Source of the DNA: Flaccisagitta enflata
Taxonomy: Eukaryota
DNA length: 64,000 bases
Direction: 5' to 3'
Assembly: GCA_965153355.1 (NCBI GenBank)
Contig: OZ231126.1
Span: 46,066,001-46,130,000 of the forward strand
The notes beneath the pieces were generated by a model. The model had not been told where the DNA came from. It saw only the letters and a list, made by a program, of their open reading frames with translations, and made no database searches. The translations under genes were made by a program, and so were the position numbers. Positions 57,374 through 60,300 of the stretch are shown piece by piece; within the stretch, counting starts at the first letter, position 1, and every line of letters starts with the position of its first letter.

Positions 57374-60300
57374 ATGGCCAACTTGACAGCGCCAGCTACG
57401 GAAGACGAAATCTTCGAGCTTCTGCAAGAAGCTGTCGACGACTCAAGCAGCTTCTTTTCACTGCTTCGAGGAGTTCCTCACGTCATCAGAATCATCTTCG
57501 AGTTGTCCACGAACGAGTTGAGATGGAAAAGATGCATTCGACTGCCCGACGCAGTGCTGGATGCCAAGCTCGCCGATAGCTTCTATGCGGAGGCAAGTGA
57601 TGATGATGATGATGATGATGATGATGATGATGATGATGATGATGATGATGATGATGATGATGATGATGATGATGATTTGGATCATCGCAATCAATGACAT
57701 CGTCATCGGCATTGTGTTCATCATCACTATCATCATCACCATCACCATCACCATCATCATCAACATTGCCATCACCATCGACATCATCATCATCATCATC
57801 ATCATCATCATCATCATCATCATCATCATCATCATCATCTTAATCACCCATCCATCATCCCTTTAGGATCACGACGCGTTTCCTGCATTGCCATATTCCC
57901 GCGATACTTACCTTTTCTTGACCGAGTTGTGGAAAGAGTCTTCAGACTTACCGGACATAGCCTTAGGATTTCGGATTGCGAAAGAAAATCAACTCACTTT
58001 TCCGCCACCATCCGGAATCGACATCAACATGATGCCTTTCATTTTGGCGGGAGAATTCCAAGACACGCAATTGCCCGAGTAATCGCTCCATCTTAGTAGG
58101 ATTCATTAATTACTGATCAGTGATAAACTCATTCATTCATTCATTCATTCATTCATTCATTCATTCATTCATTCATTCATTCATTCATTCATTCATTCAT
58201 TCATTTATCTATTCATTTATTCATTCATTCATTCATTCATTCATTCATTCATTCATTCATTCATTCATTTTAAGGTTCTTTTGTTTTTTGCCCATCAATT
58301 CATTTCTAAGATTCATTCTTTCAATAATTCATTTTTTCATTCAGTCTCTCGATGATTCATTCATTCATTCGTTGATTCATTCATCCTTTCAATGATTCAT
58401 TCATTCATTCATTCAATTAGAAAATGATAAGTACAAGCGTTAAAAGCTACATGTCGTGTTTCTGCATTTCGCATCATCAGGCTTTTTGGAATGACTCATT
58501 TATTCATTTCTTCATTTCTCCAATCCTTTTTTAGGTGTGACAAAGCACCTCTATAACTGGCTGTGTCCGTTGGTTGGTCGGTTGGTCGGTTGGTCTGTCT
58601 GTAATAGAGGTCGACCGAAGGTTCGGTTTGGTACTGACCTACTGACCCTCACCCACTTTTGGCCTCCGGTTTGGCTTTGGTTTTGAAAGTGCCAGTAGGT
58701 AGTAGAAATGTCAGTATGTAGTAGGTAGAAGGTTCAAAATTGAATTTAGGAACGAGGGAGAGAGAGAGAGAGAGAGAGAGAGAGAGAGAGAGAGAGAGAG
58801 AGAGAGAGAGAGAGAGAGAGAGAGAGAGAGAGAGAGAGAGAGAGAGAGAGAGAGAGAGAGAGAGAGAGAGAGAGAGAGAGAGAGAGAGAGAGAGAGAGAG
58901 AGAGAGAGAGAGAGAGAGAGAGAGAGAGAGAGAGAGAGAGAGAGAGAGAGAGAGAGAGAGAGAGAGAAAGAAAAAAAAACAGGTCGCCCAAGGGCAATAT
59001 GTGGTCAGCGATACCCGTTGCCCTGCTTTGCATGATTGTGAATTTGTATGAGGGGATGCAGGGCAGCGGCCCCGAAGGGGACAAAGTCCTGTAGAACACA
59101 GGGGGACTTTCGTTCGTCCTGCCTAATTTGAGGCTTGAGAGGCCAGGTTTGAGGCCTTACAGGCCGGATTTGAGACCTGACAAGCCAAATTTGAGACCTG
59201 AGAGACTTAATTTGAGGCCTGAGGGGCTGGATTTAAGGCCTGAGGCACCGGATTTGAGGCCTGAGAGGCCAAATTTGAGACCTGACAAGCCAGATTTGAG
59301 ACCTAAGAGACCAAATTTTAAGCCTGAGGGGCTGGATTTGAGGCCTGAGAGGCTGGATTTGAAGCCTGAGAGGCTGGATTTGAGGCCTGAGAGGCCGGAT
59401 TTGAGGCCTGAGAGGCCAAATTTGAGACCTGAGAGGCCAGATTTGAGGTCTGAGGGGCCTGATGGGGGGGGGACGAACAAACGAACAAATAAACGGACGA
59501 ACGAAAGTCCCCCTGTGTTCTACAGGACTTCGTCCCCTTCGGGGCCGCTGCCCAAAAAGAAAGTGAAAGAGAACAAGGCTGGATACACGGCTACCCTAGT
59601 CGCGTGCGGGTGGGCAGGAGCAGTGCTGGAGAAGGTCACAAGGGTATCTGGGAAGAAGCCGTATGCTTAAAAAGCTCAAAAACGCTGAAAAAGTAAAAAG
59701 GGGACTAACCAACCGACTGACAGACAGACATAGCGAGGTGTACAGTCGCGAAGCACGTGACTAAAAAAACAGAGAGAGAGTAAAGAGACAATATAAAAAT
59801 CATTTTTAAAAAAATATAAGGACCACTATTTTTAGTCGCTATCACGCGACTCTACAATCTGTTATGTCCATTGGTCGGTTGGTTGTTGGTTGGTTAGTCT
59901 GTCAGTCGGTCACATTTTACTTTTTTTATGATTTTAATTCTTTGACCTTACTGCTCCTGCCGTAATGGCCTAGTGACCTCAAAAATTAAACAAAGAAATA
60001 AGGACATAGAAAGTAAAAGAATGAAAAAAATTTTGCTAAGAAAAAAAAATATTCAGGATTGGGGCAAGATGAACAGGTATGCAACAAGACAGACAAGTAC
60101 ATAGCCAGACAGATTAATGGACAGCATTAAAAAATATGCCTTGCAATAGGGATTGACCAAAGGTTAATATTGGTACTGACCTACTGGATGGAGCACTTCC
60201 TCTACCTTGGAACCAAAGTCGGAAAAAAATTCTAAGACGATACAGATCTTTTGTTTCTTTCGGGTTTCCCCGCTTGGGCGAAGCTTTAATTCAAGTAGAT

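Follow-up and report, generated by a model that had tools for sequence, protein, structure and literature searches.

We analyzed a 64-kb window of the Flaccisagitta enflata genome, that is, the whole stretch of 64,000 nucleotides (nt) at positions 46,066,001 to 46,130,000 of contig OZ231126.1 (assembly GCA_965153355.1), and focused on a six-exon gene of its + strand (57374-63639 in window coordinates, which are used throughout). The coding sequence of this gene is interrupted at 57593-57866 by a segment built largely from a (GAT)n repeat and its reverse complement, hereafter intron 1. This segment is most likely a lineage-restricted U2-type GC-AG intron located in a variable linker of the encoded protein. 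Our preferred reading, to which we assign a probability of roughly 0.55, is that the intron is lineage-specific, that it grew from a coding aspartate (Asp) microsatellite and that the hairpin into which its repeats are predicted to fold is tolerated by splicing or mildly helpful to it. The hairpin is thus regarded as a by-product and not as a demonstrated requirement. As relatives of the gene translate an acidic microsatellite linker where the intron starts with the same repeat in the Asp frame, intron 1 may represent a candidate snapshot of intron birth.

Exon 1 (57374-57592, +), as delimited by its open reading frame (ORF) and by homology, extends over 73 codons from an ATG to a phase-0 end and opens an uncharacterized conserved gene. 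The original prediction had placed at its end a GAG|GCAAGT donor followed closely by about 80 nt of (GAT)n, with a 3' half of (CAT/ATC)n reaching to about 28 nt from a TTTAG acceptor, and all four elements are indeed present in the 274-nt intron. The sequence ...TAT GCG GAG lies directly 5' of GCAAGT, which places the GC donor at 57593-57598 on the + strand (GAG|GCAAGT, 57590-57598). The 5' arm begins at position +6 and is a perfect (GAT)26 array that reads as Asp in the frame of exon 1 (57598-57676, +; 26.3 copies with 100% matches according to Tandem Repeats Finder, TRF). It is followed by a 41-nt non-repeat spacer (57677-57717, +), which contains an in-frame stop (57695-57697) and forms the tip of the predicted hairpin. 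The 3' arm (57718-57859, +; TRF period 6, 81% matches) is a degenerate (CAT/CAC/ATC)n tract that grades into a perfect (ATC)19 at 57782-57838, the latter ending 28 nt short of the 3' splice site. This arm is no mirror copy of the 5' one, as it is longer and degenerate toward the center of the intron, and the spacer is non-palindromic. A candidate branch site, TCTTAAT (57837-57843, +, with its A at 57842), maps to the base of the predicted hairpin, and a 3' tail predicted to be single-stranded (57848-57866, +) ends in TTTAG (57862-57866). The intron is closed after the 3' tract by TTAATCACCCATCCATCATCCCTTTAG|GAT. AG|G is found at both of its boundaries, the acceptor reading TTTAG|G (57862-57867).

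U2-type GC-AG introns have GC at +1/+2 within an otherwise strong donor consensus (MAG|GCAAGT), and branch sites conform to YNYTRAY. GAG|GCAAGT agrees with the general metazoan donor consensus at 8 of 9 positions, the mismatch being +2 only, and AGGCAAGT occurs only three times on the + strand of the window. At the opposite end, TCTTAAT, with its A 24 nt upstream of the acceptor boundary, fits the branch-site consensus. Intron 1 contains two AG dinucleotides, one within the donor (57596) and the other at the acceptor (57865-57866). Its last 28 nt are non-repeat, and the repeats therefore do not obscure the region of the branch site and the pyrimidine tract. The original prediction had described this tract as poor. 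Between positions −32 and −3, 23 of 30 nucleotides are in fact pyrimidines (11 of them T), which is the highest count among the five introns of the gene (22, 14, 16 and 21 in the same interval of the other four), although the tract is C-rich and broken by A. Being the richest of the gene, it gives no sign of a 3' signal in need of replacement.

The reading frame constrains both ends of the intron. Translation continuing from exon 1 yields Ala-Ser-(Asp)n until it terminates at a TGA (57695). All three frames of the intron contain stops, and its length is 3n+1. The codon at 57864-57866 is TAG in the frame of exon 2, so that this exon cannot extend upstream. Among donors whose phase suits the acceptor, GCAAGT at 57593 alone retains a semi-conserved 'LDAxL..xxY' segment. 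Two other donors were considered and discarded: use of the GT at 57597 would shift the phase and enter a non-homologous His-rich frame, and the GTG at 57554, although in phase, is weak and would remove the semi-conserved segment that aligns in relatives. Removal of all five introns of the gene, including intron 1 at the 57592/57867 junction, leaves a stop-free ORF of 467 amino acids (aa), or of 483 aa with an alternative donor of intron 4.

To compare the gene with its relatives, the 73-aa translation of exon 1 was searched against 1.84 billion representative proteins. With a threshold of E ≤ 1e-3 this retrieved 20 relatives, and for 10 the E-value was 1e-10 or lower. We compared 18 of these 20 matches; the two weakest, P0020 (E 4e-4) and the 599-aa P0019 with its six short stretches (E 1e-4), were set aside. 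A single ORF crosses the site of intron 1 into an LFLTEL-type motif in 15 of the 18 relatives, and the remaining three (P0001, P0005 and P0017) stop or diverge near this site. P0003, P0011, P0016 and P0028 align with exon 1 and then with exon 2, the lengths of their linkers requiring no added coding sequence. Another relative, P0004, is identical to full-length P0011 as far as 'DHDDRTT' and divergent afterwards; this divergence marks P0004 as unspliced DNA or RNA devoid of an intron at the site occupied in the window. The junction itself sits in a variable linker. Exon 2 begins with Asp-His-Asp, and full-length P0016, P0021 and P0031 carry at the aligned position in-ORF runs of Asp and asparagine (Asn) of unequal lengths. 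P0021 is 8 residues longer than P0016, its mate in a 90% cluster.

Further searches outlined the family. With P0011 as query, 761 proteins were retrieved at E ≤ 1e-3; PF08766, present in 5 of the 120 matches listed, is the only Pfam domain seen there, and the named members are entered as "uncharacterized protein" of the cnidarians Clytia, Hydra, Hydractinia, Dendronephthya and Paramuricea. Pfam searches with the exons, P0011 or P0016 gave no match above cut-off. Querying the longer proteins with exon 2 returned no match, and exon 3 as query retrieved three relatives with at most 58% identity. A locus found by searching the DNA of relatives (L001) was rejected as a homologue, since tblastn revealed a chance match of ~25 residues to the search pattern.

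Collectively, donor, acceptor, reading frame and co-linearity with homologues point to 57593-57866 as a genuine intron, which we consider quite likely on these sequence features. The GC-AG intron originally proposed is thus supported by sequence logic and homology, but its weak pyrimidine tract is not.

The two arms of intron 1 are reverse-complementary, as had been claimed, and their best pairing joins 57597-57674 to 57770-57847 over 78 nt at 94%. The predicted RNA fold of the 274 nt reaches −133 kcal/mol and consists of a single long hairpin of ~80 base pairs (bp). Dinucleotide shuffles of the same sequence average −93.9 ± 4.6 kcal/mol, which gives intron 1 a z-score of −8.44, and none of 200 shuffles was as stable. 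In the minimum-energy fold, 69% of the bases are paired, and the unpaired termini measure 4 nt (5') and 19 nt (3'). The end-to-end duplex scores z −4.74, a value reached by 0/300 shuffles, and the probability of being unpaired ranges between 0.3 and 0.97 over 57838-57848, around the candidate branch site. The predicted order of elements, namely 5' splice site, four free nucleotides, ~80-bp stem, TCTTAAT, ~24 nt and AG, is a bridging arrangement. According to this model, the halves of the intron could form one hairpin that sets the 5' splice site beside the branch-site and 3' region, consistent with the approximation of splice sites that had been put forward. In the pre-mRNA, the (GAU)n and (AUC)n arms would zip into this ~80-bp hairpin and leave free 4 nt 3' of the 5' splice site and some 19-24 nt, including TCTTAAT, before the sole available AG. 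The hairpin is thereby predicted to shorten the effective intron and to bring the reactive sites side by side. Nonetheless, both arms are one microsatellite duplex in opposite orientations, and their complementarity is therefore automatic and no evidence of selection.

The variable Asp/Asn linker of the relatives, together with the placement of (GAT)n in the Asp frame, leads us to infer that intron 1 was born from a coding repeat. The ancestor would have carried a translated Asp microsatellite at the linker, a copy of it in inverted orientation would have come to interrupt this microsatellite, and the interrupted stretch would now be spliced out between a near-consensus GC donor and the first AG. 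We looked for related sequences in the window with a permissive blastn search, whose best 40 rows comprise the repeat itself and a degenerate GAT-like patch at 55438-55529. The latter lies 2 kb upstream of the gene and shares 67-83% identity with the intron arms. The possibility that the 3' half of intron 1 was copied in inverted orientation from the acidic portion of exon 5 was dismissed, as no such match appears among those 40 rows. Translated trinucleotide repeats were also noticed elsewhere: (AAC)25 at 8399-8473 lies in an ORF at 7649-8920 (+) and (GTT)n at 33966-34096 in an ORF at 33315-34124 (−), both encoding poly-Asn. Their occurrence in long ORFs suggests that translated trinucleotide repeats are common in this genome.

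We also assessed how readily such a pair of repeats may arise by chance. The window contains 46 perfect arrays that add up to 2,842 nt (4.4%), among which the GAT class and the ATC class are represented by one array each, 106 nt apart, in intron 1. Under random placement across the window, 0.46 complementary repeat pairs are expected with gaps of at most 150 nt and one was observed (P 0.37). For gaps of at most 300 nt, three were observed vs 0.76 expected (P 0.04), two of the three being one (CT)42/(AG)20 pair that recurs in both copies of a duplicated segment. A window-wide enrichment of complementary repeat pairs is thus not clear. The adjacency of GAT and ATC is striking for that motif, yet the motif was chosen post hoc and one window cannot show a rule. 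This second inverted pair, consisting of (CT)42, 268 nt and (AG)20, is located at 9612-10003, with a copy at 54784-55202, in sequence with no ORF of at least 130 aa, which indicates that complementary pairs also arise outside recognizable introns.

The remainder of the gene was laid out by tblastn of P0003, P0011, P0016 and P0028 against the window, which defined six exons on the + strand, all of them open and retaining the family motifs. Exon 2 (57867-58078), supported by both tblastn and alignment, encodes the conserved 'LFLTEL' and 'FPPPxxIDINMMPFILA' motifs. It is followed by intron 2 (58079-60871, GTAATC..AAAG), which includes an (ATTC)n array 50 nt past its donor (58129-58415) and an (AG)105 array (58758-58967), neither of them with a complementary partner in this intron. 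Exon 3 (60872-61134) was located by tblastn and precedes intron 3 (61135-61629, GTATTC..GAAG), inside which lies a dispersed repeat. Exon 4, likewise identified by tblastn, spans 61630-61761, or reaches 61809 if an in-frame GT donor (CCT|GTATGT) is used, both models being stop-free. Intron 4 (61762-62639, GAG|GCGCGT..CCAAG) is, according to homology, probably of the GC-AG type and carries a 12-bp terminal helix. Exon 5 (62640-63052) rests on tblastn. Intron 5 (63053-63474, GTTAGT..CTCAG) separates it from exon 6 (63475-63639), which was assigned by tblastn and its ORF and terminates with a TAA stop at 63637-63639.

Intron 4 deserves closer inspection, because it is probably, as judged from its sequence and that of the homologs, the second GC-AG intron of the gene. 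Its acceptor is fixed at 62639, and GAG|GCGCGT at 61762 is the only donor that leaves 'GGIYMAS' contiguous. Among 145 proteins scanned, this motif is contiguous in all nine homologs that have both flanking motifs. The CCT|GTATGT donor, 48 nt downstream (61810), is canonical and in frame, and its use would put 16 residues into the GGIYMAS motif. The two in-frame donors make isoforms of 467 and 483 aa possible. With the GC donor, 61762-61773, starting at +1, pair with 62621-62632 through 11 Watson-Crick pairs and one G-U, and the helix stops 7 nt short of the acceptor. The duplex between the two intron ends amounts to −30.9 kcal/mol (z −2.95) and was matched by 3/300 shuffles, and a helix as good as this one was found in 0.115% of 20,000 pseudo-introns derived from the window (P 0.00115). 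Of these paired ends, the 9-mer and its complement each occur only once in the window. On the other hand, no end pairing was evident in four GT-AG introns, namely introns 2, 3 and 5 and the 133-nt intron of a neighboring bromodomain gene (z −0.40, −1.83, +0.52 and +0.44, respectively). Ends are thus paired in 2/2 GC-AG vs 0/4 GT-AG introns, a split with a one-sided exact probability of 1/15, and the resulting association of end pairing with GC donors is only suggestive. Since GC-AG introns account for <1% in model organisms (PMC7072748), two in the five introns of this gene would be unusual.

Several observations weigh against the origin of intron 1 in a coding repeat, or against its being an intron at all. 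The closest relatives are at most 54% identical and lie on contigs of 501-1787 nt that may be DNA or complementary DNA (cDNA), which makes the absence of the intron in relatives firm only for the P0004/P0011 pair. An accidental (GAT)n array would fall in the Asp frame with a 1-in-3 chance. A 1-nt break of the frame is apparent in the bromodomain gene, and assembly indel errors or decayed genes are therefore possible in the region. With regard to the proposed benefit of the hairpin, the predicted stem overlaps donor positions +5/+6, and positions −3 to +2 become mostly paired as well when the exon flanks are included; the stem could thus hinder binding of U1 rather than help it. Finally, a search for sequencing runs with the words of 57300-58100 listed 24 runs, of which 23 are indexed at shares of 0.10-0.13 and none at half or more, as expected from hits to the repeat words alone. 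Four of these runs yielded 0 reads aligned to 57263-58128, exons included, and thus carry no weight for or against the junction.

The split between GC-AG and GT-AG introns is the main reason why we keep an explanation based on structure-dependent splicing, according to which splicing of those introns of this organism whose GC donor is weak or non-canonical depends on pairing of their ends to bring the splice sites together, intron 1 via its repeats and intron 4 via its short helix, as an invertebrate counterpart of the teleost (AC)m-(GT)n class. We deem this possible though unlikely. The hairpin of intron 1 is far more stable than its shuffles (z −8.44), and its repeats, 6 nt from the 5' and 28 nt from the 3' splice site, fall within the 50-nt rule of the teleost class of structured introns (PMC4691745). 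Both probable GC-AG introns have paired ends (z −4.74 and −2.95), which the four GT-AG introns lack, the 12-bp helix of intron 4 starts exactly at +1 (P ~0.001), and two GC-AG introns in five contrast with the <1% given for model organisms (PMC7072748). However, these are two post hoc cases with an exact probability of 1/15, and the GC donor of intron 4 was picked by homology only, with a canonical in-frame GT available 48 nt downstream. The pyrimidine tract of intron 1, the richest of the gene, gives no sign of a 3' signal that structure would have to replace, the helices overlie donor nucleotides read by U1 and U6, and complementarity within the same microsatellite requires no selection. The (CT)42/(AG)20 inverted pair with its 268-nt gap lies where there is no frame of at least 130 aa. 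It is rather unlikely, in turn, that this gene shows a metazoan form of end-paired, structure-assisted splicing tied to GC donors, in which intron 1, once born from a poly-Asp repeat, was made spliceable by its hairpin; if the pattern were true genome-wide, RNA-bridged splicing would gain an additional animal lineage and an additional class of repeats.

Intron 1 might not be spliced at all, with accidental splice sites in a gene broken by an inverted duplication in its poly-Asp repeat (a young pseudogene or allele) or in an assembly error. The lack of any spliced read for 57592/57867 among the four runs (0 reads aligned), the continuous ORF of most relatives at this site and the 1-nt frame break of the bromodomain gene, which indicates that errors or decay occur in the window, would all fit. 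Six open exons with conserved motifs and a complete spliced ORF nevertheless render this improbable, as does a donor with 8/9 consensus matches that lies 6 nt before the repeat in the correct phase, AGGCAAGT being found only three times on the strand; besides, a 3' arm that is longer and degenerate and a non-palindromic spacer are unlike a fold-back artefact of assembly. An inserted element, transposon or introner, whose terminal inverted repeats carried or co-opted the splice sites would account for inverted termini near both splice sites, for a lineage-specific position and for AG|G at both boundaries, and the inverted-repeat introners of Amoebophrya (PMC7789003) and the symmetrical introns of Hypoxylaceae fungi (PMC8469720) are comparable precedents. 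We give this origin little credence, as both arms consist of plain microsatellite sequence in place of terminal repeats typical of a family, 57270-58100 matches only itself within the 64 kb searched, no target-site duplication is seen beyond AG|G, and the ends of intron 4 have no second copy in the window. Least probable, and only faintly so, is that the excised hairpin serves as a source of small RNAs, either as a tailed mirtron or as a hairpin-RNA precursor. Its long, near-perfect predicted stem covers almost the entire intron, and searches against Rfam returned generic hairpin-like matches to models of microRNA precursors; yet all 28 matches, distributed over both strands, are look-alikes that remain below the gathering scores (the best with 51.4 bits vs a threshold of 74), and a simple-repeat stem of ~80 bp in 274 nt is unlike the short hairpins of mirtrons. 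Should both the bridging of the splice sites by structure and the birth of the intron from a coding Asp repeat fail when tested, intron 1 would be an ordinary intron of a microsatellite-rich genome in which one repeat happens to occur in both orientations.

Other features of the window complete its description. A ~10-kb segment is present in two inverted copies (9469-19601 and 45145-55345) that are 88-97% identical, each with a Pao-type long terminal repeat (LTR) retrotransposon, an element that fits a metazoan host. The Pao copy at 13256-18839 (−) has an intact gag-pol ORF of 1458 aa plus an integrase ORF, and that at 45906-51452 is split into several ORFs. A further copy of a ~520-bp repeat common to the ends of these elements, possibly a solo LTR, maps to 23357-23894. 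The bromodomain gene (~25400-25970; Pfam PF00439, E 1e-12), which presumably resembles BRD8, has its 133-nt GT-AG intron at 25594-25726, and its frame break lies near 25550-25560, between '...HKPVT' and 'NEIAPGY...', attributable to an indel in the assembly or to decay of the gene. Telomere-like interstitial (AACCCT)n arrays and an array of an 18-nt variant are located at 24152-24244, 29690-29992 and 60349-60372, and at 40158-42699 direct and inverted repeats with a mutual identity of 72-87% form a complex block.

Beyond the AC/GT class of teleosts, few nuclear introns are thought to pair their splice sites by RNA structure. In the literature searched, we found neither complementary trinucleotide repeats that bridge introns nor such introns in invertebrates; a trinucleotide version with a GC donor in an invertebrate would, if true, mean that the principle is not bound to one repeat or one lineage. 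In yeast, pairing between the 5' splice site and the branch-point region reportedly aids splicing, as Goguel and Rosbash in 1993, Libri in 1995 and Charpentier and Rosbash in 1996 are said to have described. Intron 1 would resemble those introns in that an intramolecular helix shortens the distance between 5' splice site and branch site, whereas the yeast helices are short and made of specific sequences instead of microsatellites.

The teleost (AC)n/(GT)n precedent invoked in the original prediction is real: in teleosts and lamprey, (AC)m-(GT)n structured introns carry complementary simple repeats near opposite ends (Lin et al. 2016, PMC4691745). That paper reports a fish exemplar with −99.7 kcal/mol and >75% of its bases paired, and assigns the class to 10% of zebrafish genes. 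In this class the two repeats co-occur genome-wide across introns but not exons, and splicing needs their pairing and can do without U2AF2. As in these introns, the repeats of intron 1 are located at both ends, and the predicted helix extends over most of the intron and beats dinucleotide shuffles (here −133 kcal/mol, 69% paired). Intron 1 differs in its GAU/AUC trinucleotide in place of AC/GU, its GC donor, its invertebrate host and the number of cases, one or perhaps two. In addition, the repeats of the teleost class obscure the branch point and the pyrimidine tract, which those of intron 1 do not.

A closer counterpart to intron 4, with its 12 bp and GC donor, is provided by the introners of the dinoflagellate Amoebophrya, in which inverted repeats of 8-20 nt pair the intron ends and many boundaries are non-canonical (Farhat et al. 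2021, PMC7789003). The likeness is strong, but those introners come in multi-copy families with direct repeats at their boundaries and variable splice dinucleotides, whereas the ends are here unique in the window and the boundaries standard GC-AG. Symmetrical introns and stwintrons of the Hypoxylaceae are canonical U2 introns with terminal inverted repeats of 45-55 nt that can be wholly double-stranded (PMC8469720). The authors hold symmetry to be unnecessary for excision and describe the positions as new and species-specific. Unlike intron 1, those introns are fungal, belong to sequence-related families and have no microsatellite arms. With the nonconventional introns of euglenids (PMC3935182), the introns described here reportedly have in common the idea that pairing joins the two ends.

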